A DNA stretch of 42,972 nucleotides. It comes from Candidatus Woesearchaeota archaeon. Its GTDB lineage: Archaea > Nanobdellota > Nanobdellia > Pacearchaeales > GW2011-AR1. Shown here piece by piece: positions 10,797 through 42,869 of the stretch. The stretch spans positions 1 through 42,972 of the forward strand of contig CAZRJP010000002.1 of assembly GCA_964600865.1 (NCBI GenBank). Reading direction: 5' to 3'. The position numbers and the translations under genes were made by a program. The first letter of the stretch is position 1. Each line of letters begins with the position of its first letter. The notes under the pieces were generated by a model. It was given only the letters and a program-made list of their open reading frames with translations. It did not search any database and had not been told where the DNA came from.

Positions 10797-13301
10797 ATGA
10801 AAACAATAAAAACAGATTTTATTCCAATGCATTATGATTACTTTGATTATAAAGGTAGAAATTACATCAAAATAACTGGGAGAAACTCCAAAAGAAAAAG
10901 AATATGCATTATAGATGATTGTGATGTATATTTATGGGCAATTTTAAAAGAAAATACTTCTAAAAAGAAAATTAAAAAAATTATTAAAAAAATATCTAAA
11001 ATACAATTAGATACTAAGGGAAGAAATACAAAAGTAGAAAAAGTTGAACTAAAAAACAAGAATTTCCTAGGAAAAAAAGTAAAAGCATTGAAAGTTTATG
11101 CTACAAATTATAAAGATTTACATGATGTTGCAGATAAATTAGGTATGGATGAAATAGAAAAAAGAAGAGGGTATGATCTTGGATATAAAAGTCATTACAT
11201 AATTGAAAAGAACCTAACACCCTTAAAATGGCATAAAATTGAGGGAGAATTGCTAGATAATTCTCAAGAACTAGGGGGTGTTGGAATGTCATTAGATGTA
11301 GATAAATGTATTAAAGCAGAATCAATAAAACCTGTTAAAAAGCAAACAAAAAAACAAAATGATTTCAAACCAAAAGTTCTTGCATATGATATTGAAAGTG
11401 ATGAATTAGAAATTGGTGAAGGAGAGATAGTTATGGTTTCTCTTATGGATAACAATGGATTTGAAAAAGTAATAACTTATAAAAAGAATAATGAAAAAAA
11501 ATCAAAACTTCCTTATGTAGAATATGTGGAAGACGAAGCATCTCTTTTAGAGAAATTTGTTGAATATGTAAAAGAAATCTCTCCAGATATTTTAACAGGG
11601 TATTATTCAGATGGTTTTGATTTGCCTTATCTAAGAGCAAGAGCAGAAAAATTCAATGTAAAACTCTCTTTAGGATTAGATGGAAGCAAACCAAGATTTA
11701 CTCGTGGAAGGAACATGTCTGGAAAAATAAGAGGGATTGTCCATTTAGATTTAATCAAATTCATAAAAACTGCTTATGCACAATACATGAAATCTGAAAC
11801 ACTTGGATTAGATGATGTTGCAAAAGAATTTTTAGGAGAAGAAAAAAAGGAATTTGAACACAAACACTCCTCTGAATTAAACCATAAAGATTGGCAAGAA
11901 TATTATAAATATAATCTTCACGATTCCAAATTAGTAATAAAACTATTTGATAAATTCTGGCCAGATTTATTAGAATTTTCAAAAACAATTCAAGAACCAA
12001 TATTTAGTATTTCAAGAGCAGGCCTTTCAAAATATGTAGAAAATTACATACTCCATAATTTAAAAAAATTTAATGAAATACCTGAAAAAAGACCAACATA
12101 CAATGACATTAGAAAAAGAAGGTCTAGTGGAGGAGTAAAAGGGGCATTTGTCTATGAACCTTCTCCAGGATTATATAAAAACCTTGCAATGTTTGATTTT
12201 ACTTCAATGCACACCAGTATAATAATAACACATAACCTATCAAAAGGAACGCTATTAAATAAAAAAACAAAAAATGCTATTGCATCTCCTAAATTAAAAT
12301 TAAATGGGAAAGAGAAACAATTTTACTTCTCTAAAAAACAAGGATTTTTTCCTGAAGTTATGAAAGAAATCTTTGACAAAAGAAAAAAATATAAAAAACA
12401 ATATAAGAAAAATCCAGATGTTATAACCAAAGCTAGAAGTAATGCATTTAAGGTTTTATCTGCATCTGTTCATGGTTATATTGGATTCTTTGGGGCAAGA
12501 TATTATTCTATAGAATCTTCAGCATCTATACTCGCATTTGTAAGAAAATACAATAAAGATACAATAAATAAAATAAAAGAAAAAGGACATAAAATTATCT
12601 ATGGAGATACAGACAGCATAGCATTTTTAACTAAAGGGAAAAATAAAAAAGAAATAAAAAAACTTCTTAAAGAATTAAACTCCCAACTTCCAGGAATAAT
12701 GGAACTTGAATTAGAAAAAGTGTACAAAAGAGGCTTATGGGTTACTACAAGAGCAGGGAAAATAGGTGCAAAAAAGAAATATGCATTAATAGACAAAAAA
12801 GGTGAAACAAAAATAAGGGGATTTGAAACAGTTAGAAGAGACTGGTGTCAATTATCTAGGAATGTTCAAGATAAAATTATAAAATTAATTTTAAAGGAAG
12901 GTAATGAAAAAGAGGCATTAGAATATGTTAAAAAAATAGTTAAAAAAATTAAAAAAAGAAAAATAAAAATTAAAGATTTGTTAATAAAAACTCAATTAAA
13001 AAAACCAATAAAAGAATACAAATCATTACCTCCTCATGTTGCTGCAGCTAAAAAAATGAAAGAAAAAGAAATCCCTGTCAGCCAAGGAAACCTTATTGAA
13101 TATTATATAGCTGAAACTAAAAAGAAAAAGAAACTAGTCCGTGAAAAGGTTCGTTTACCTCAAGAAAAAGGAGAATATAATATTAAATATTACTTAAGCA
13201 GACAAATTCTTCCTGCTATTGAAAACATCTTTCAAGTTTTTGATGTTGATATAAAAAAAGTACTTGAGGATAGCAATCAGAAAACACTTAAGGAATTTTA
13301 A
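10797..13301 (+). CDS. polB: Family B DNA polymerase (divergent motifs A and B)
   Basis: The exonuclease motifs are Exo I 'LAYDIESDE', Exo II 'GFDLPYL' and Exo III 'YYKYNLHDSKL'. The polymerase motifs are motif A 'DFTSMHTSIIITHNLS', motif B 'KVLSASVHGYIG', motif C 'YGDTDS' and 'KKKYALID...RRDW'. The C-terminus has a PIP-like 'QKTLKEF'. Confidence 0.92.
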   Translation: MKTIKTDFIPMHYDYFDYKGRNYIKITGRNSKRKRICIIDDCDVYLWAILKENTSKKKIKKIIKKISKIQLDTKGRNTKVEKVELKNKNFLGKKVKALKVYATNYKDLHDVADKLGMDEIEKRRGYDLGYKSHYIIEKNLTPLKWHKIEGELLDNSQELGGVGMSLDVDKCIKAESIKPVKKQTKKQNDFKPKVLAYDIESDELEIGEGEIVMVSLMDNNGFEKVITYKKNNEKKSKLPYVEYVEDEASLLEKFVEYVKEISPDILTGYYSDGFDLPYLRARAEKFNVKLSLGLDGSKPRFTRGRNMSGKIRGIVHLDLIKFIKTAYAQYMKSETLGLDDVAKEFLGEEKKEFEHKHSSELNHKDWQEYYKYNLHDSKLVIKLFDKFWPDLLEFSKTIQEPIFSISRAGLSKYVENYILHNLKKFNEIPEKRPTYNDIRKRRSSGGVKGAFVYEPSPGLYKNLAMFDFTSMHTSIIITHNLSKGTLLNKKTKNAIASPKLKLNGKEKQFYFSKKQGFFPEVMKEIFDKRKKYKKQYKKNPDVITKARSNAFKVLSASVHGYIGFFGARYYSIESSASILAFVRKYNKDTINKIKEKGHKIIYGDTDSIAFLTKGKNKKEIKKLLKELNSQLPGIMELELEKVYKRGLWVTTRAGKIGAKKKYALIDKKGETKIRGFETVRRDWCQLSRNVQDKIIKLILKEGNEKEALEYVKKIVKKIKKRKIKIKDLLIKTQLKKPIKEYKSLPPHVAAAKKMKEKEIPVSQGNLIEYYIAETKKKKKLVREKVRLPQEKGEYNIKYYLSRQILPAIENIFQVFDVDIKKVLEDSNQKTLKEF

Positions 13302-14253: not shown

Positions 14254-16554
14254 TTATCCTAAATAACTATTTTCCTGAGGAACTGCTGCTTTTGCATTCT
14301 TTAAGAAATTTTCCTCAACTTGTTTATATACCTTTATTGTGCTTGGGGTGACACTTGGTTTTATCCTATCCATTGCTTCATCAAAATTCTTTTTTGTAAC
14401 CTTATCAGATTTCATATCTTTTCTTAATGCAATCATTCCTGCTTCTCTAACAATTGCTTCAATATCTGCACCAGTATATCCTTCTGTTTTGCCTGCTAAT
14501 TTATCAAAATTAATTCCTTTTGTAAGAGGCATTTTTTTTGTATGAACCTTGAAAATTTCTTTCCTAGCTTTTTTATCTGGAGCATTAACTAATAAAATCT
14601 TATCAAATCTTCCAGGCCTTAACAATCCAGGATCCACCATATCTGGCCTATTTGTGGCACCAATAATTAAAACATCATTTAAATCTTCTAAACCATCCAT
14701 CTCTGCAAGTAATTGGTTTAATACTCTTTCAGTAACTTTTGTTCCTTGTTCCTTCCCTCTCTTACCTGCAAGAGCATCTAATTCATCAAAAAATACTACA
14801 CAAGGAGCAACTTGTCTTGCTCTTTCAAAGACCTTTCTAATACCTTGTTCACTTTCTCCTACCCATTTACTTAATAATTCTGGCCCTTTAATTTGTATAA
14901 AATTAGCTTCTGATTCTTTTGCAACTGCCTTAGCCAATAATGTTTTTCCTGTTCCAGGAGGACCATAAAGTAATATTCCTCTTGAAGGTCTTATTCCCAT
15001 TCTCTTAAAACTCTCAGGATGTTTCAAAGGCCATTCAACTGCCTCATTTAATTCTCTCTTAATCTCTTCTAATCCCCCTATTTGTTTCCATGAAATATTT
15101 GGGGCTTCAACAAATACTTCTCTCATTGCAGAAGGCCTTACAATTTTTAATGCTTCTAAAAAGTCACTATGTTTAATTAATAATTTTTCTAAGACTTCTG
15201 GGGGGATTTGTTCATCTTCATCTAATTTCATTTTAGGAAGATATTTTCTTAAAACATTCATTGCAGATTCCTTACTTAAAGATTCTAAATCTGCTCCAAC
15301 AAATCCGTGAGTTAAAGATGCAATCTTATCTATTTTAACATTTTTCAAAGGCATCCCTCTTGTATGAATTTTAAGAATCTCTTTTCTAGCTTTTTTATCT
15401 GGAACACCTACTTCTATTTCTCTATCAAATCTTCCAGGTCTACGTAAAGCAGGGTCTACAGCATTTACTCTATTTGTAGCACCAATAACAATAACTTCTC
15501 CTCTTCCTTTTAATCCGTCCATCATAGTAAGAATTTGAGAAACAACACGTCTTTCTACTTCTCCATGAACATCTTCTCTTTTAGGTGCAATAGCATCTAT
15601 TTCATCAATAAATATTATACTAGGAGCAGTTTTTTCTGCTTCATCAAAAATCTTTCTTATTTTCTTTTCTGATTCTCCATAAAACTTGCTCATAATTTCA
15701 GGTCCATTTAATAATATAAAATTAGCATCAGACTCATTTGCAACTGCCTTGGCCAATAATGTTTTTCCTGTTCCAGGAGGACCATGTAATAAAACTCCTT
15801 TAGGAGCATCAACACCTAACTTTCTAAATATCTCTGGATGTTTTATAGGTATTTCAACCATCTCTCTTATTTTCTTTATCTCATCACTTAATCCACCTAT
15901 ATCTTCATAAGTAATCTCAGGTATCTTTTCATCTGAAACCTCTACTGCTTTTGGATTTAAGACTACCTTAGTATTTTCTGTGATTATAACTGGTTTACTA
16001 GGATTTGTTGAAACAACTAAAAATTTAATCTGTGCAACTCCTCCTCCAAGGTTTCCAAAAATATTATTCAAATCTTCTCCAAAGATATCTCCAAATCCTT
16101 CTCCAAGACCCATATCTGAAAATAAATCTCTTCTTCTTTGAACACCGCCAAGAACAATCAAATCTCCTTTCATTAAAGACCTACCAAGTAATCCTTTTTG
16201 TAGACTTTTAGAATTTGCTTGAACCATGATTCCCTTTTGAGCAGGAGCAATAACTACTTTTTTTGCTTCTTGAACATTTGCCTTAGAAATCTTAACTGAA
16301 TCTCCAATACTTGTTTTTGCATTTCTTCTTAATATCCCATCAATTCTAATAATTCCTTCTCCTACATCAGCAGGATAAGCTCTATCTGCAATTGCTATTG
16401 TCTCCCTATTTCCTTTAATCTTAATAACATCTCCTCTATGAACTCCTAAATCTCTCATTATTTCAGCATCTAATCTAGCAATTCCTTTATATGCATCATC
16501 TTGTAATGCTTCTGCAACACTTAATCTTATTTCTTTATCTTTTTTCTTAGCCAT
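14254..16554 (-). CDS. cdc48: CDC48/VCP-like AAA+ ATPase
   Basis: An N-domain ('LRLSVAEA...GDVIKIKG') is followed by two AAA modules, each with '[15 protein letters not shown]' and a DE Walker B (IFIDEID, VFFDELD), plus the SRH '[16 protein letters not shown]'. Confidence 0.95.
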
Positions 16555-19304: not shown

Positions 19305-20192
19305 TTATTTTTTCTTCAATAACCTTATCCTATTCTCATTACCATAAGGTATTTTTTCTATTAATTCTTTTTGCTGAAGTTTTCTAAGTTTTCTACTTAA
19401 TCTTACCTTACTAATTCCTAAATCATTAACAATTTCTTTAGTCCATGATTCATTTTTTTTCTTGTTTAATAAATACTCTATTATTTCCTTTTGTTCTCCA
19501 TATAAATTTCTTGTTAATTTCTTCTTTAAATCTGTTTTTTTCTTAGATTTTTTACTTTTTTTAGATTTCTTCTTAGATTTCTTCTTAGATTTCTTCTTAG
19601 ATTTCTTCTTAGATTTCTTTTTTAAAATATTAATCTTCTTTTTAAGAATAACTGTTTGATAAAAAACAATAAATGCAATTAATAAAACTACAAAAACAGG
19701 CCAGAATAATTCTATTTCATTAACTGGTTCATATGAAATAAGAACATCCTTAGAATTAATATTTTCCCATTTTAAAATAACTCTCCTTCCATCTGTAATA
19801 ATATTATAATTTTCAGGAAAAATAATTTTGTTTTTAGTAAGAATAGCTTTTTCAGGAAGTCTAACAGTTAAATTAACAACTCCCTCAAATTTATCTCCTG
19901 TTAATATAAAAAAATGTTTTTCTTTTACTCCCTCAATAACACTCTCTGTAATATAACTTACAATTAACTCTTCAGAAGAATCTACTTTTAATGATTGATT
20001 TATTATTTTAAAATCTTCATTTGATTCAATTGTTCTAGCATCATATGGTAATTTATATCCAAAATTAGAAACCCTTCCAAAATTTATTTCTGCTAATGTT
20101 TTATCTTCTACAATAGTGTAATTTACAGAAACAGCACTTACTAATCCTATCATCCATATCACAAAAAGGCTAAATAATATTATCTTCTTCAT
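19305..20192 (-). CDS. Membrane-anchored protein with extracellular domain, KKS-repeat linker and C-terminal winged-helix domain
   Basis: It has a signal peptide, a ~150-aa ectodomain, the TM 'FWPVFVVLLIAFIVFY', a (KKSK)n repeat, and a wHTH-like segment 'EIIEYLLNKKKNESWTKEIVNDLGISKVRLSRKLRKLQQKELIEK'. Confidence 0.55.
   Translation of the reverse strand: MKKIILFSLFVIWMIGLVSAVSVNYTIVEDKTLAEINFGRVSNFGYKLPYDARTIESNEDFKIINQSLKVDSSEELIVSYITESVIEGVKEKHFFILTGDKFEGVVNLTVRLPEKAILTKNKIIFPENYNIITDGRRVILKWENINSKDVLISYEPVNEIELFWPVFVVLLIAFIVFYQTVILKKKINILKKKSKKKSKKKSKKKSKKKSKKSKKSKKKTDLKKKLTRNLYGEQKEIIEYLLNKKKNESWTKEIVNDLGISKVRLSRKLRKLQQKELIEKIPYGNENRIRLLKKK
19561..19620. repeat. 12-bp tandem repeat x5 (ttagatttcttc), coding
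   Basis: Four perfect units plus one unit with one change encode the KKSKKKSKKKS... linker of the 19305-20192 protein. Confidence 0.9.
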
Positions 20193-22619: not shown

Positions 22620-25007
22620 ATGCCAAAAAAACCTAAAAAAAGCAGAGAAGAATCATCAGCTGAAGAATATTTCCCAGTTGATGAAGAAGACCTAAAAAAT
22701 ACAACAGAAAAACAAGTAAAAGATTCTACTCCTGAAAGACCAAAACACTCAACAGAAAAATCTGTTAAAAAGATAGAAAGTGATGTCCACTCTATAGAAA
22801 AAAAATATCATCAACCAGATAAAAAAGATATTGAAAAAGTAGAAAAAAAAGGCAAAAAATCTAAGAAAAAAAAGAAATCTAAAAGAACTACAACAAAAAC
22901 AAAAAAATATATTCCTCCTAAGATAAAATTAAAAGAAAAAGGATATGAATTAATAATAACAGAAAAACCTCAGGCAGCAGGTAAAATCGCGTCAGCATTA
23001 GGAAAACCAGTAAAAAATTCTCACCAAAAAGTTTCTTATTATGAATTAAATAGAAATGGAAAAAAAATAGTTATTGTTTCTGCCGTAGGTCATTTGCTAA
23101 CCCTTGCCCAAAATAAAAAAGGAACTGAAATCCCTATGTTTGATATAAGCTGGAAACCAAACTTTCAAGTAAGAAAAGGTGACTTTACAAAAAGATACTA
23201 TAATACAATTCTAAAATTATGTAAAAATGCAGGAAGTTTAACTGTGGCTACAGACTTTGATGTAGAAGGAGAAGTTATTGGAACAAATGTTGTAAAATAT
23301 ATCTGTAATCAATCTGATGCTAAAAGAATGAAATTCTCTACATTGACAAAAAAAGAATTAGAAGATTCATATGAAAACAAAAAACCCTCAATAGAATGGG
23401 GCCAGGCAATTGCAGGAGAAACACGACACTATTTAGACTGGTATTATGGTATAAATCTTTCACGGGCCTTAATGAATGCTATCAAAACAACTGGGAAATT
23501 CAAGATAATGTCCATTGGTCGTGTTCAAGGACCTGCATTAAATTTAATTGTAGAAAAAGAAAGAAAAATACAAAAATTTAAACCTAAACCCTACTGGCAA
23601 GTATTTATAACAATCGAAGATGGAAAAAACAAATTAGAATTAAAATATACTAAAAATATCTTTGATAAAAAACAACTAAGTAAATTCAAAAAATTAAAAG
23701 GACAAAAAATCAAGGCCTCTACAAAAAAATACAAAAGAAAAATTCCTCCAAAAAGCCCATTTAATCTATCAAGTCTTCAAAAAGAAGCATACAATCTTTA
23801 CAAAATAAAACCATCTAAAACACTAAAAATAGCTCAAAGCCTTTATTTAAATGGGTTAATATCCTATCCAAGAACATCAAGTCAAAAACTTCCTGCATCA
23901 ATAGGATATAAAAAAATATTAAAAAAATTAGCAAAAAAATACAAGGCAAAACATTTAATTAAAAAAGACAAGCCAAAAGAAGGTAAAAAATCTGATCCTG
24001 CACACCCATCAATATATCCTACAGGAGATACACAAATATTATCTGGCCAAGACGAAAAAATATATGATTTAATTGTTAAAAGATTTCTATCATTATTTTG
24101 TGAAAATGCCATCATAGAAAACAAAACAGTTACAGCTAAAAAAGAAAAAATGAAATTCAAGAAAAAGGGCAAACAGATAATAAAAAAAGCATGGATGGAA
24201 ATCTATCCTACTAGGAGGAAAATAGAAGAAATCCCTGACTTCAAGGGAAAAGTAGATATAAATGATTGTAAATTTGAAGATAAAGAAACTAAACCTCCAA
24301 GAAGATACTCTCCTGCTTCAATCTTATCTGCATTAGAAAAAAGAAATCTTGGAACAAAAGCAACTCGTTCAAATATCTTAGAAACTCTTTACAGTAGAAA
24401 CTACATAAAAGACCAAAGCATAAAAGCAACCCCTTTAGGAATGTCCTTAATATCCTCCTTAGAAAAACACTCTCCTATAATAATAAATGAAGAATTAACA
24501 AGAAAATTTGAAGAAGATATGGAAGAAATAAAAAATGCTAAAAAATCTAAATTAGAAAAAGAAGAGCAGAAAATTCTAAAAAATGCTCAGAAAAGTATAA
24601 AGGATATTGCTAAAGATTTTAAACAACATAAAAAAGAAATAGGAAAAGAACTTATGAAAGCAATAACAAAATACAGGGAACAACAAAAAAAGGAAAACAG
24701 AATAATGATTTGTCCAAAATGTAAAAAAGGCCATTTAGCAATAACTTATTCTAAAAAAACAAAAAGAAAATTCATTGCATGTGATGCTTATCCTAAATGT
24801 AAAACAACATACTCCTTGCCACCATATGGAAAAATAAAAAAATTAGGTAAAGATAAACTATGTAAAGAATGTAAATTCCCATTATTAATGTCTATAAGAA
24901 AAGGAAAAAAACCATGGATATTTTGCTTTAACCCTAAATGCCCTACAAATAAAAAAAGGATTGAAAAATATAAAAAAAGGAAAGCTAAACAAAAAAAGAA
25001 AAATTAA
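22620..25007 (+). CDS. topA: DNA topoisomerase, type IA, with a Lys-rich N-terminal extension and C-terminal zinc ribbons
   Basis: It has Toprim 'LIITEKPQAA' and 'ATDFDVEGE', the catalytic Tyr box 'LISYPRTSS', and C-terminal 'CPKCKKG...CDAYPKC' and 'CKECKFP...CFNPKC'. Confidence 0.9.
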   Translation: MPKKPKKSREESSAEEYFPVDEEDLKNTTEKQVKDSTPERPKHSTEKSVKKIESDVHSIEKKYHQPDKKDIEKVEKKGKKSKKKKKSKRTTTKTKKYIPPKIKLKEKGYELIITEKPQAAGKIASALGKPVKNSHQKVSYYELNRNGKKIVIVSAVGHLLTLAQNKKGTEIPMFDISWKPNFQVRKGDFTKRYYNTILKLCKNAGSLTVATDFDVEGEVIGTNVVKYICNQSDAKRMKFSTLTKKELEDSYENKKPSIEWGQAIAGETRHYLDWYYGINLSRALMNAIKTTGKFKIMSIGRVQGPALNLIVEKERKIQKFKPKPYWQVFITIEDGKNKLELKYTKNIFDKKQLSKFKKLKGQKIKASTKKYKRKIPPKSPFNLSSLQKEAYNLYKIKPSKTLKIAQSLYLNGLISYPRTSSQKLPASIGYKKILKKLAKKYKAKHLIKKDKPKEGKKSDPAHPSIYPTGDTQILSGQDEKIYDLIVKRFLSLFCENAIIENKTVTAKKEKMKFKKKGKQIIKKAWMEIYPTRRKIEEIPDFKGKVDINDCKFEDKETKPPRRYSPASILSALEKRNLGTKATRSNILETLYSRNYIKDQSIKATPLGMSLISSLEKHSPIIINEELTRKFEEDMEEIKNAKKSKLEKEEQKILKNAQKSIKDIAKDFKQHKKEIGKELMKAITKYREQQKKENRIMICPKCKKGHLAITYSKKTKRKFIACDAYPKCKTTYSLPPYGKIKKLGKDKLCKECKFPLLMSIRKGKKPWIFCFNPKCPTNKKRIEKYKKRKAKQKKKN

Positions 25008-31709: not shown

Positions 31710-33221
31710 TTATTTCTTATTCTGTCTCTTTCCAATCTGAAATCTTAAAATAGCTGCAATTCCACTCATATTTTTGAATTGATCTCCCTCTTCTGTTTCT
31801 GTAGAAACAACTTCCACATTGGAACTAATTGATTTTGCTTTTTTCTTTAATTCTTTTAATAATGGTTTATCTAAAGATTTAGATAAAACTAAAGTATCTA
31901 CAGCGCCATATTTTAATGCTCTTTCAACAGGTTTTTGTTTTAATGCAGAAAGTTCAGGCTTTTCTCCAAGATTTCTAAACAATTTTTCTAAAATCTTTTT
32001 TTCATATATCATTTCTTGATCTGCTAAAATCTTTTGAGATTTTTGAACTAATTCTTTTAATCCAGATTCATCTGTGTCTCCTATATCTACTCTCCCTATA
32101 ACCTTTTCCTGAAGATTTGTAACCAAATACTCTCCCTCTAAAAATTCATCTTTAGTTGGAACAGGACCTCCAAGAATAATCCCTTTTAATTTTGGATTTT
32201 TAAAAAAAGACCTTTTTGCTTCTTTTGCAATTCTCTTATAAAATTTCTTAGTTAATCCCTCAGTAATTCTATGAAATCTTTGAGCAGAATTATGAACAAC
32301 ATGAGAATTAGCAATAAAATTTTTATTTTCAACTTCCAAATCAATCAATTCTATATCAGAAATCTCGTGATTAATTAATGATATTTTACTTCTACTTCCA
32401 TCATCAAAAACTAAATCATCTCCATTAATTAATTTGCCCGCAGTCTTTTCAACTATCTTTTCATTTTCATAAACAAAAAATAAATGATTTCCAGAAGAGA
32501 TAATAGGGGGATATTTTGTTAAAGATATCTTATAATAATCTTTTTTATTAACTTTCCATTTTTTCAAAACTTTAGAATAAATTTGTTTGTTTTGATTAAA
32601 ATCAAAACCTTTAATATAATCTCCTTTTTTAATATCTTTCAATTTAATTTTACTTTTATTTTTTGTATTCACAATTGTCTCTGGAGAAAGGCACTGCCCG
32701 CCTGCCCTTACTTTAGAAGGAACACCTGAAGTCATTTTATGAATAACATTTATTCTTTTCCCTTCCAACAATCCAATAGTTGCTTCTTTTCTATCCATAA
32801 CAATTAATCCATAAACTTCCTCAACCTCTAATTGTTTTTTTAATGGCTCTAAAACAAAATCTTTGTCACATCTATATAATCTTGTTTTTAATGGGATAGG
32901 CGGTTCAATTGCCCATAATCTAATATCCTTTTGTCCTTCAGATTCAGCAACATTCCCAGAAAACAATGCTAATCCATTTTTAGGTGTTTTTTTCAAACCT
33001 TTCAAATGCCTAATAATTTTTTCCAAAGCATCAGTAACATTTTTTTTAGTTGAAGATGATTTAATGTTCTTTGCAGTAGATGTCTCTGCTTCAAGTTGCC
33101 TTTGGGCTGCATTAACATCATAACCTGCAGAAACATAAACTGAAATAAGCTCAGTATGTCTCCCTCTATATTCACTTAATTCCTCAACAATCTCTTCAAG
33201 TTCATCTTTATCTAATGGCAT
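31710..33221 (-). CDS. prf1: Peptide chain release factor aRF1, interrupted by a mini-intein
   Basis: It has NIKS ('TAKNIKSS'), YxCxxxF ('LYRCDKDF') and GGQ ('VRAGGQ'). After GGQ comes a 135-aa insert, and then 'SAQRFHRI' resumes the conserved aRF1 sequence. Confidence 0.9.
   Translation of the reverse strand: MPLDKDELEEIVEELSEYRGRHTELISVYVSAGYDVNAAQRQLEAETSTAKNIKSSSTKKNVTDALEKIIRHLKGLKKTPKNGLALFSGNVAESEGQKDIRLWAIEPPIPLKTRLYRCDKDFVLEPLKKQLEVEEVYGLIVMDRKEATIGLLEGKRINVIHKMTSGVPSKVRAGGQCLSPETIVNTKNKSKIKLKDIKKGDYIKGFDFNQNKQIYSKVLKKWKVNKKDYYKISLTKYPPIISSGNHLFFVYENEKIVEKTAGKLINGDDLVFDDGSRSKISLINHEISDIELIDLEVENKNFIANSHVVHNSAQRFHRITEGLTKKFYKRIAKEAKRSFFKNPKLKGIILGGPVPTKDEFLEGEYLVTNLQEKVIGRVDIGDTDESGLKELVQKSQKILADQEMIYEKKILEKLFRNLGEKPELSALKQKPVERALKYGAVDTLVLSKSLDKPLLKELKKKAKSISSNVEVVSTETEEGDQFKNMSGIAAILRFQIGKRQNKK
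32289..32693 (-). mobile_element. Mini-intein (135 aa, no homing-endonuclease domain) in aRF1
   Basis: The insert starts with 'CLSPETIV' (Cys1, block A) and has block B-like 'SSGNHLF'. It ends with 'DLEVENKNFIANSHVVHN' followed by Ser(+1). I verified the codons TGC at 32693-32691, CAT-AAT at 32294-32289 and TCT at 32288-32286. Confidence 0.85.
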
Positions 33222-42758: not shown

Positions 42759-42869
42759 GAGCCTGTAGCTCAGTCTGGTCAGAGCACTACATTCTGTTAT
42801 AGAATAAAATCTATACAGAAGGTGATTCTGATAAGGTAGGGGTCCACGGTTCAAATCCGTGCAGGCTCA
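42759..42869 (+). tRNA. tRNA-Ile (anticodon GAU) with a 36-nt intron at non-canonical position 30/31
   Basis: The acceptor is GAGCCTG/CAGGCTC with discriminator A. The D arm is GCTC-AGTCTGGTCA-GAGC and the T arm is CACGG-TTCAAAT-CCGTG. Removing 42791-42826 gives the anticodon arm CTACT-CTGATAA-GGTAG. A BHB fold places both splice sites correctly (see finding). Confidence 0.75.
42791..42826 (+). other. tRNA intron (BHB-bounded)
   Basis: The central 4-bp helix is C42785-A-C-T42788 paired with G42821-G-T-G42824. The 3-nt bulges are A42789-C-A42791 and A42825-T-T42827. The distal helix pairs 42792-42797 with 42815-42820 and continues from 42799-42802 to 42811-42814. Confidence 0.7.

Follow-up and report, generated by a model that had tools for sequence, protein, structure and literature searches.

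Known inteins reside mostly in proteins of replication, repair and nucleotide metabolism; they are rare in core translation factors. Several class 1 mini-inteins of solved structure, above all gp41-1 (6qaz, 6riz), and also NpuDnaB, the Ssp DnaB mini-intein and TvoVMA, share the HINT fold, have a length of ~125-140 aa and carry no endonuclease; all follow the same junction logic, with Cys1 at the start, His-Asn at the end and Ser or Cys at position +1. We saw these features in an insert encoded in a 42,972-nt stretch of DNA from a Candidatus Woesearchaeota archaeon (assembly GCA_964600865.1, contig CAZRJP010000002.1, positions 1 to 42,972 of the forward strand; this whole stretch is called the window). 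The gp41-1 intein is 31-33% identical to the window intein; the block F/G motif F-x-AN-x-x-L/V-x-HN is common to gp41-1-type mini-inteins and the window intein, and related viral inteins have NF(F/I)ANxxLVHN, as do gp41-1 and the window intein. The differences lie in host and architecture: gp41-1 is naturally split and belongs to a phage-like DnaB-type helicase, whereas the window intein is contiguous and interrupts a translation termination factor; in addition, block B is of the SxxH type in the window intein and of the TxxH type in the solved mini-inteins.

Our reading of the locus is that a class 1 mini-intein very probably interrupts the precursor of archaeal release factor aRF1 after Gln176, the Q of GGQ, and before Ser312. 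This intein would be removed by canonical four-step splicing and represents a mobile intein in a form lacking the endonuclease, and the precursor should be inactive.

The interrupted aRF1 gene and its insert

The aRF1 precursor gene, made of N-extein, mini-intein and C-extein, occupies positions 31710..33221 on the minus strand and encodes 503 aa plus stop. Its product was identified as aRF1 by the equivalog-level model TIGR03676 aRF1_eRF1 (381.7 bits, cut-off 234.7); all three eRF1 domains of Pfam were matched (PF03463, PF03464 and PF03465, eRF1_1/2/3), and the aRF1 motifs NIKS (in TAKNIKS), YxCxxxF (in LYRCDKDF) and GGQ are readable in the translation. The N-extein (aa 1-176; 32694..33221, minus strand), delimited by translation and alignment A2, has the catalytic Gly-Gly-Gln at its C-terminal end (GGQ codons at 32694..32702, minus strand). 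The C-extein (aa 312-503 plus stop; 31710..32288, minus strand) supplies domain C and what remains of domain M; Pfam placed eRF1_2 at 311-401 and eRF1_3 at 405-496, and the alignment with Halobacterium aRF1 4af1 was colinear. Residues A173, G174, G175 and Q176, together with S312, do not vary among the 54 sequences of alignment A2.

A preceding sequence-only reading had placed a 135-aa insert at 32289..32693, right after the GGQ of aRF1. Retranslation reproduced this exactly and assigned the insert to the minus strand, which had been left unstated. Across the two junctions (marked here by slashes) the precursor reads ...PSKVRAGGQ/CLSPETIV...FIANSHVVHN/SAQRFHRITEG. Deletion of the insert in silico gives a 368-aa protein with the loop GGQSAQRF, which aligns with aRF1 4af1 without gaps; the earlier claim that this loop is restored without the insert is matched by intein-free homologues, in which an ungapped GGQSSQRF or GGQSAQRF stands at this place.

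The catalytic residues could be located one by one. Cys1, the nucleophile of the first step (precursor aa 177; codon at 32691..32693, minus strand), is a Cys also in 117 homologous inteins and in 40/40 species-representative loci; it is the single Cys of the window intein. Block B, S67-G-N-H70 (32484..32495, minus strand), is contained in SSGNHLF (intein residues 66-72); alignment A1 shows both S67 and H70 to be invariant, under the numbers S70 and H73 because its first row starts with three extein residues. This block is the Ser variant of TxxH; Ser for Thr is a conservative substitution and a known tolerated variant. Blocks F and G, D118-L-E-V-E-N-K-N-F-I-A-N-S-H-V-V-H134-N135 (32289..32342, minus strand), contain five residues invariant in A1: D118 (the block F Asp), F126, V133, H134 and N135. 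The terminal Asn135 (precursor aa 311 by translation; codon at 32289..32291, minus strand) is followed by Ser+1 (aa 312; codon TCT at 32286..32288, minus strand), the first residue of the C-extein and the presumed transesterification nucleophile, invariant in A2; once spliced, it would be the S of GGQS. The residue at -1 is Gln. All the hallmarks named from sequence at the outset, the initial Cys, the block-B-like SSGNHLF, the His-Asn end and the Ser next to it, were thus confirmed, and the key residues are kept in all 157 further copies.

Searches for Hint/intein profiles, proposed earlier as a check, returned two families above curated cut-offs, a match that goes far beyond chance: Pfam PF14890 Intein_splicing gave 52.2 bits on the insert alone (cut-off 35.8, E = 7.6e-14), and TIGR01445 intein_Nterm gave 29.3 bits (cut-off 24.5). 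By sequence, the insert is matched by the gp41-1 intein 6qaz (E = 3.9e-5). The AF2 model of the intein is all-beta and confident (pLDDT 95.5, pTM 0.87); Foldseek found 65 PDB matches to it at E <= 1e-3, and among the 50 matches listed nearly all were inteins or other HINT domains (TM 0.75-0.91), with TM 0.83-0.91 to the gp41-1, NpuDnaB, TvoVMA and Ssp DnaB inteins. In the model of the precursor the intein stands apart as a confidently predicted domain (pLDDT about 90), attached to GGQ flanks of low confidence. With profiles, predicted fold, catalytic residues and colinear empty homologues in agreement, we characterized the insert (32289..32693, minus strand; precursor aa 177-311) as a class 1 mini-intein of 135 aa, predicted to splice.

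Pfam gave no endonuclease match to these 135 aa, and alignment with the 430-511-aa copies at the aRF1 GGQ site showed the endonuclease segment to be wholly missing from the window copy, in line with the initial remark that the insert is too small for a homing endonuclease (135 aa versus 430-511 aa in the LAGLIDADG copies at the same site). A full-length homing intein was rejected for the window copy, as no LAGLIDADG or HNH domain lies between blocks B and F. A class 3 intein (Trp-Cys-Thr triad, with a block F Cys initiating) was rejected as well, Cys1 being the sole Cys with none in block F; so was a split intein, the window intein being contiguous.

The mini-intein HMM had no match in the six-frame translation of the window besides the aRF1 copy, and PolB, Cdc48, TopA, ValRS and MetRS, usual hosts of inteins that are encoded in the window, had no Hint match. 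An intron-containing tRNA is located at 42759..42869 of the window.

Occupied and empty GGQ sites in other archaea

Of the 120 best database homologues, 117 carry an insert at the identical GGQ/S site, as do 40 of the best 80 of 393 species-representative loci; the C...HN/S pattern is present in all 157 of these further copies (117 proteins plus 40 loci). The hosts are Woesearchaeota, Pacearchaeota and Nanoarchaeota MAGs; among ten divergent aRF1-intein clusters, the one with a source name came from Aenigmatarchaeota. The aRF1 GGQ/S intein is therefore common in DPANN archaeal metagenomes and not unique to the window. It occurs in two size classes, mini-inteins of 131-149 aa and LAGLIDADG-bearing inteins of 430-511 aa; 57 copies have 430-431 aa with two LAGLIDADG motifs and three have 511 aa. 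The mini-inteins are ~46% identical to each other, yet their catalytic residues are invariant, which argues for selection on splicing; at this level of amino acid identity synonymous sites should be saturated. Alignment with intein-free aRF1, also suggested beforehand, ruled out a lineage-specific loop lacking conservation of Cys1, His-Asn and Ser+1, these residues being invariant.

NCBI labels the LAGLIDADG copies at GGQ/S 'hypothetical protein' or 'LAGLIDADG family homing endonuclease', while the JGI auto-annotation of some copies reads 'eRF1/intein/homing endonuclease'. Such labels, which many of these essential release factors bear at NCBI, can make genomes appear to have no aRF1.

Empty alleles, with an ungapped GGQS(S/A)QRF, made up 35 of the best 80 of the 393 species-representative loci; P0099, P0114 and P0115 are intein-free homologues of this kind. 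Intein-free homologues with 75-76% identity across the exteins as aligned (81-84% within the top local BLAST segment) have GGQSSQRF. The codon of Ser+1 was TCN in 41/41 intein-bearing alleles; the empty alleles had 16 TCN and 19 AGY. The restriction of occupied alleles to TCN, against the frequent AGY of empty ones, may reflect a recognition/immunity polymorphism for the homing endonuclease in the GGQS-coding DNA. We consider this reading of the codon polymorphism more likely than the reading of conditional splicing discussed below, though of lesser novelty.

When alleles were ordered by extein similarity, mini, full-length and empty alleles were interleaved. In a Mantel-type test, in which extein similarity is a poor proxy for host phylogeny, identity of inteins was only weakly related to identity of exteins, with rho 0.12 (p = 0.08) for mini-inteins and rho 0.29 (p = 0.001) for full-length ones. 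We read the window copy as a form, lacking the endonuclease, of a mobile intein whose target is the highly conserved GGQ-coding DNA; in related DPANN archaea, copies at this site still have the LAGLIDADG endonuclease. The ancestor of the window copy might have arrived by homing and later lost the endonuclease. Having no endonuclease, the window copy cannot home by itself.

Predicted splicing and its possible consequences

We expect the folded HINT domain to carry out splicing after translation, in four steps. Cys1 would attack the Gln176-Cys177 bond (N-S acyl shift) to form a thioester, assisted by His70 of block B and Asp118 of block F; Ser+1 would then attack the thioester to give a branched ester; Asn135, with assistance of His134, would cyclize to succinimide and free the 135-aa intein; finally, an O-N acyl shift would join Gln and Ser by an ordinary peptide bond. 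The resulting 368-aa aRF1 would have its GGQSAQRF loop intact.

Since the GGQ loop has to enter the peptidyl-transferase centre, peptide release should be blocked by a 15-kDa domain on the tip of this loop, and with the unspliced precursor blocked, the supply of active release factor, and with it termination, should depend on splicing. A second, uninterrupted aRF1 gene outside the 43-kb window would remove this dependence.

A rival reading is co-option of the intein as a conditional switch, with slow or environment-dependent splicing (sensitive to redox, temperature, salt or a ligand) tuning the pool of active aRF1. The precursor, with domain N (which reads the stop codon) and domain C intact, could compete as a catalytically dead factor and cause pausing or read-through; in solved structures (5lzv, 6hcf) eRF1 with GGQ changed to AAQ serves to trap termination complexes, which shows that loss of GGQ function does not keep a factor off the ribosome. 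Mini-inteins without an endonuclease, their splicing residues all intact, are kept in many divergent hosts; this persistence fits either a benefit to the host or the plain inability to delete the intein precisely, and the lethality of imprecise deletion at a catalytic site explains it more simply. Empty alleles are frequent in close relatives (35 of the best 80 species genomes) and show the intein to be dispensable, and redox control by a disulfide trap within the intein is ruled out, as Cys1 is the sole Cys. We find co-option as a switch improbable. It is likewise unlikely that splicing of the GGQ intein is rate-limiting or condition-dependent and that the precursor, whose domains for stop-codon reading and partner binding are intact but whose GGQ tip would be blocked, competes with mature aRF1 at stop codons, which would give the small-genome DPANN archaea a post-translational control of termination or read-through.

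Non-splicing HINT domains exist, and the insert could be a degenerate one, either cleaving only, like a BIL domain, or staying as a permanent extra domain of the release factor. The top Foldseek match by E-value was indeed Tetrahymena BIL2 (6y75, E = 4.4e-10), and the closest non-aRF1 relatives of the intein are proteins with 3-6 tandem HINT domains; however, gp41-1, NpuDnaB and TvoVMA match the insert as well as BIL2 or better in TM-score and sequence identity. All residues for both junction reactions, including the +1 nucleophile, are present and invariant in the 157 further copies. The insert interrupts the motif that is best conserved in an essential, conserved protein, and BIL domains are not known from such a setting; a permanent 15-kDa domain on the GGQ tip is also hard to square with entry into the peptidyl-transferase centre. 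A BIL domain was rejected on account of the conserved essential host, the GGQ site and the invariant Ser+1, and we regard a non-splicing domain of any kind as very improbable.

An artefact (chimeric metagenome assembly, pseudogene or RNA-level intron misread as coding) is scarcely credible: the window is probably a metagenome-assembled contig and the intein DNA is more AT-rich than the whole gene (22.7% versus 28.8% GC), but the 503 codons run in a continuous frame with no stop or frameshift, the insert encodes a domain that folds confidently in the AF2 model, Rfam has no intron family at the insert, and this architecture recurs in independent assemblies, well over a hundred in number, that stem from different projects.

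The aRF1 intein among known systems

The preferred reading, a splicing class 1 mini-intein in aRF1, adds this factor to the list of intein hosts. No aRF1 or eRF1 intein was found in the full-text literature covered, which included texts on Bodo saltans virus and Anaeramoeba and the main text of the survey by Novikova et al. 2016; the GGQ of aRF1 is likely an insertion site undescribed in the literature. Core translation components 'contain few inteins' according to that survey (PMC4760082), and release factors are absent from its main text.

Interrupted by an intein, the universally conserved GGQ motif would provide a clean natural example of an essential activity made possible only by protein splicing. 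The element is also widespread in DPANN archaea, where each of the three stages of the homing cycle (endonuclease-bearing, mini, empty) is represented. The diverse natural family of compact inteins of 131-149 aa, with Gln at -1 and Ser at +1, could interest protein engineers.

The nearest comparison is with the LAGLIDADG inteins at aRF1 GGQ/S from Pacearchaeota, Woesearchaeota, Nanoarchaeota and Aenigmatarchaeota MAGs (such as P0020, P0043, P0035 and P0168), which exist as database entries only. These have the same insertion point, host gene and C...HN/S junctions as the window copy and related splicing blocks, CLSPDT... and NF(I/F)ANGL(I/V)VHN; they differ by the addition of an endonuclease domain of roughly 300 aa, accompanied in three of them by an HTH domain. 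Identity between their splicing domains and the mini-intein clade is only ~32%, and each type makes up a clade of its own.

BIL and other HINT domains (Tetrahymena BIL2 6y75, Clostridium BIL 2lwy, Hedgehog 1at0) share the HINT fold with the window intein. Unlike the window intein, BIL and Hog domains occur at C-termini or in proteins that are variable or secreted, with neither insertion at a conserved site nor the ligation-competent +1 nucleophile pattern of the window intein.

A wider parallel is offered by archaeal inteins of aIF2/IF2, RFC, PolB, RNR and MCM which, as surveyed in PMC4760082, likewise occupy the most conserved catalytic motif of an essential protein and show the alternation of full-length, mini and empty alleles seen at the aRF1 GGQ. 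Accepted views on the workings of inteins and release factors are unchanged by this finding; as an element the aRF1 intein is of an ordinary kind, and its insertion site is one that seems undescribed.

The aRF1 gene and its insert

The aRF1 precursor is encoded on the minus strand at 31710..33221 (503 codons), with the ValRS gene on one side and the ScpB gene on the other. Its translation, ...MTSGVPSKVRAGGQ|CLSPETIVNTKNK...NKNFIANSHVVHN|SAQRFHRITEGL... (bars mark the insert borders), scored 381.7 bits with the aRF1 equivalog model TIGR03676 (cut-off 234.7) and matched Pfam eRF1 domains 1, 2 and 3, the domain 2 match being interrupted where the insert sits; the stop-codon-recognition motifs NIKS and YxCxxxF were both found. 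The sequence-only reading had placed a mini-intein at 32289-32693, and rightly so: the 135-aa segment Cys177-Asn311 maps by translation exactly to 32289..32693 (minus strand), followed by the TCT codon of Ser312 (Ser+1) at 32286..32288 (minus strand). GC content was 22.7% in the intein DNA, 28.8% in the aRF1 gene overall and 28.3% in the window.

Two checks proposed in that reading, comparison with intein-free aRF1 and an intein-domain HMM search, both bore it out. Removal of the insert leaves a 368-aa protein with the expected GGQSAQRF, and this in-silico spliced product aligned gap-free across the junction with Halobacterium aRF1 (4af1, ...RKGGQSAQRFARL...) as well as with Aeropyrum aRF1 and eukaryotic eRF1 structures. 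The insert alone scored above cut-off with both Pfam Intein_splicing (52.2 bits; cut-off 35.8) and TIGR01445 intein_Nterm (29.3 bits; cut-off 24.5). The catalytic set of class 1 inteins is complete: Cys1, S67-x-x-H70 (block B), D118 (block F), H134-N135 (block G) and Ser+1.

An AlphaFold2 model of the insert, built from 23 mini-intein sequences, was all-beta (mean pLDDT 95.5, pTM 0.87). A Foldseek search of the PDB with this model gave 65 matches with E <= 1e-3; among the 50 matches listed nearly all were inteins or other HINT domains, including TvoVMA (TM 0.91), NpuDnaB (0.88), Ssp DnaB (0.86-0.87) and gp41-1 (0.82-0.90, identity 31-33%), with BIL2 and Hedgehog domains likewise present. Judged by its residues and modelled fold, the insert is a textbook class 1 mini-intein. 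A split intein is ruled out by the contiguous chain, and a class 3 intein by Cys1 being the only Cys of the insert.

The window is a region of archaeal housekeeping genes, among them those for PolB, Cdc48, topoisomerase IA, ValRS, MetRS, ScpB, Nre and an MFS transporter. Three of these products, family B DNA polymerase, Cdc48 and topoisomerase IA, classically host inteins in archaea; here all three, at 10797..13301 (+), 14254..16554 (-) and 22620..25007 (+), lack one, and no intein besides the aRF1 copy was detected in the 43-kb window. A second tRNA, matched by Rfam at 42759..42869 (+) with 51.4 bits and missing from the ARAGORN output, is probably an archaeal intron-containing tRNA, its 111-nt match span being due to an insertion of ~40 nt in the anticodon-arm region. 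The predicted protein at 19305..20192 (-) has a hydrophobic segment at its N-terminus, then an extended repeat of lysine and serine (KKKSKKKSKKKS...) and, towards the C-terminus, a stretch with the look of a winged-helix DNA-binding region.

Relatives with an intein at the same site

A search with the precursor of a collection of 5.8 billion proteins yielded 3088 aRF1 relatives, of which the best 120 were classified. In 117 of them an insert was situated exactly at GGQ|S, and all 117 inserts start with Cys, end with His-Asn and are followed by Ser; the other three proteins (361-366 aa) are intein-free and read GGQSSQRF. The inserts fell into mini-inteins of 131-149 aa (55/117), inserts of 430-431 aa that match Pfam PF14528 and hold two LAGLIDADG motifs (57/117, proteins P0020 and P0043 among them), and 511-aa inserts with an additional HTH domain (3/117); the last two, in P0063 and P0067, were confirmed separately, and the protein lengths (519 and 498 aa) fit mini-inteins. 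The double-motif LAGLIDADG endonuclease of the 430-431-aa inteins appears intact, and the extra HTH of the 511-aa inteins (PF01381; P0035, P0084, P0108 and genome locus L027) is inserted ahead of the endonuclease.

Across the mini-intein alignment, identity to the window intein was 33-53%, with only C1, W46, S67, H70, D118, F126, V133, H134 and N135 invariant; such exact conservation of splicing residues amid divergence is what selection for splicing predicts.

Scanning one genome per GTDB species gave 393 loci with relatives; the best 80 comprised 22 with a mini-intein, 17 with a 431-aa and one with a 511-aa intein, 35 empty and 5 unparsed, under record titles of Woesearchaeota, Pacearchaeota, Nanoarchaeota, Nanoarchaeia or archaeon MAG. 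A mini-intein profile run against 1.84 billion cluster representatives found 9528 HINT-domain proteins (E <= 1e-3), and 31 of the best 149 were aRF1. Many of these 31 have quite different flanks (GKTRAGGQ|C...HN|SAQRFA), thus coming from more distant aRF1 lineages; P0135, P0141, P0150, P0152, P0154, P0168, P0172, P0180, P0198, P0264 and others carry a mini- or endonuclease-bearing intein at the GGQ site. One such distant protein, labelled by NCBI only as 'LAGLIDADG family homing endonuclease', comes from Candidatus Aenigmatarchaeota. The GGQ site is therefore used well outside the window's clade, at least across DPANN archaea. The closest non-aRF1 relatives among cluster representatives (P0122-P0130) are large and contain 3-6 HINT/PT-HINT domains in tandem, partnered, for example, with subtilase and PKD domains, Tim44-like domains, or a radical SAM/B12-binding enzyme with several inteins.

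Predicted splicing and possible history of the intein

The canonical class 1 pathway is the best-supported mechanism. An N-S acyl shift at the Gln176-Cys177 bond would be followed by transesterification onto Ser312, cyclisation of Asn311 and an O-N shift giving the GGQ-SAQRF product.

The GGQ loop, at the tip of release factor domain M, goes into the peptidyl-transferase centre; GGQ mutants such as AAQ keep binding and lose release, and such mutants are present among the solved complexes matched by the spliced aRF1. When the whole precursor was modelled with AlphaFold2 (mean pLDDT 83), the intein came out confidently as a domain of its own (pLDDT about 90), joined through GGQ flanks of low confidence. 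A 15-kDa globular domain at this position should block catalysis and, with domains N and C intact, the unspliced precursor could even compete with the mature factor. If so, selection for fast and efficient splicing would be strong.

A neighbour-joining tree built on the splicing columns common to both types separated mini-inteins from endonuclease-bearing ones as two clean clades. Mean identity was 46% within the mini-intein class, 73% within the full-length class and 32% across the classes; host extein identity was equal within and between classes (71-72%; about 72% for the hosts of the full-length inteins). The window intein falls in the mini-intein clade, which is old and diverse; closest to it are the inteins of P0003, P0002 and P0004 (51-55% identity). 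Ordered by extein similarity, mini, full-length and empty alleles were intermixed, and extein similarity correlated weakly with intein similarity. Two clades, interleaved alleles and weak correlation are together what a homing cycle should produce, a history we hold loosely, extein similarity being a weak proxy for genome phylogeny. An endonuclease-bearing intein would have invaded empty aRF1 alleles and then lost its endonuclease; the mini-intein left in place would persist, since excising it imprecisely from the GGQ loop would be lethal.

The Ser+1 codon was TCN in all 41 occupied alleles, mini and full-length, of the window and the best 80 species loci (L001-L080), versus 16 TCN and 19 AGY in the empty ones (Fisher p = 1e-8); AGY alleles were dispersed among the others when ordered by extein similarity. 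The bias may reflect target preference of the endonuclease, co-conversion of flanks in homing, or immunity of resistant empty alleles.

Relation to known inteins

Viral contigs of IMG/VR (loci L081-L096) carry related mini- and endonuclease-bearing inteins (identity 24-40%) with the common ending NFFANxxLVHN, in portal-, terminase- and ribonucleotide-reductase-like ORFs; none of these inteins has a release factor as host. This suggests movement of the family between viruses and DPANN hosts.

No paper that we found describes an intein in either aRF1 or eRF1. A survey of prokaryotic inteins from 2016 (PMC4760082) describes inteins as few in core translation components, and release factors go unmentioned in its main text. 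Intein-bearing aRF1 sequences are already public and numerous; JGI labels some of them 'eRF1/intein/homing endonuclease', and at NCBI they go under 'hypothetical protein' or 'LAGLIDADG family homing endonuclease'. The novelty seems to lie in the host, aRF1, and in the insertion site; the intein is real, tidy and moderately interesting, its mechanism unsurprising. Its closest characterised relative is gp41-1, the top solved structure by sequence (6qaz, E = 3.9e-5), with an alignment extending to the common C-terminal end ...F(Y/I)AN..(L/V).HN.
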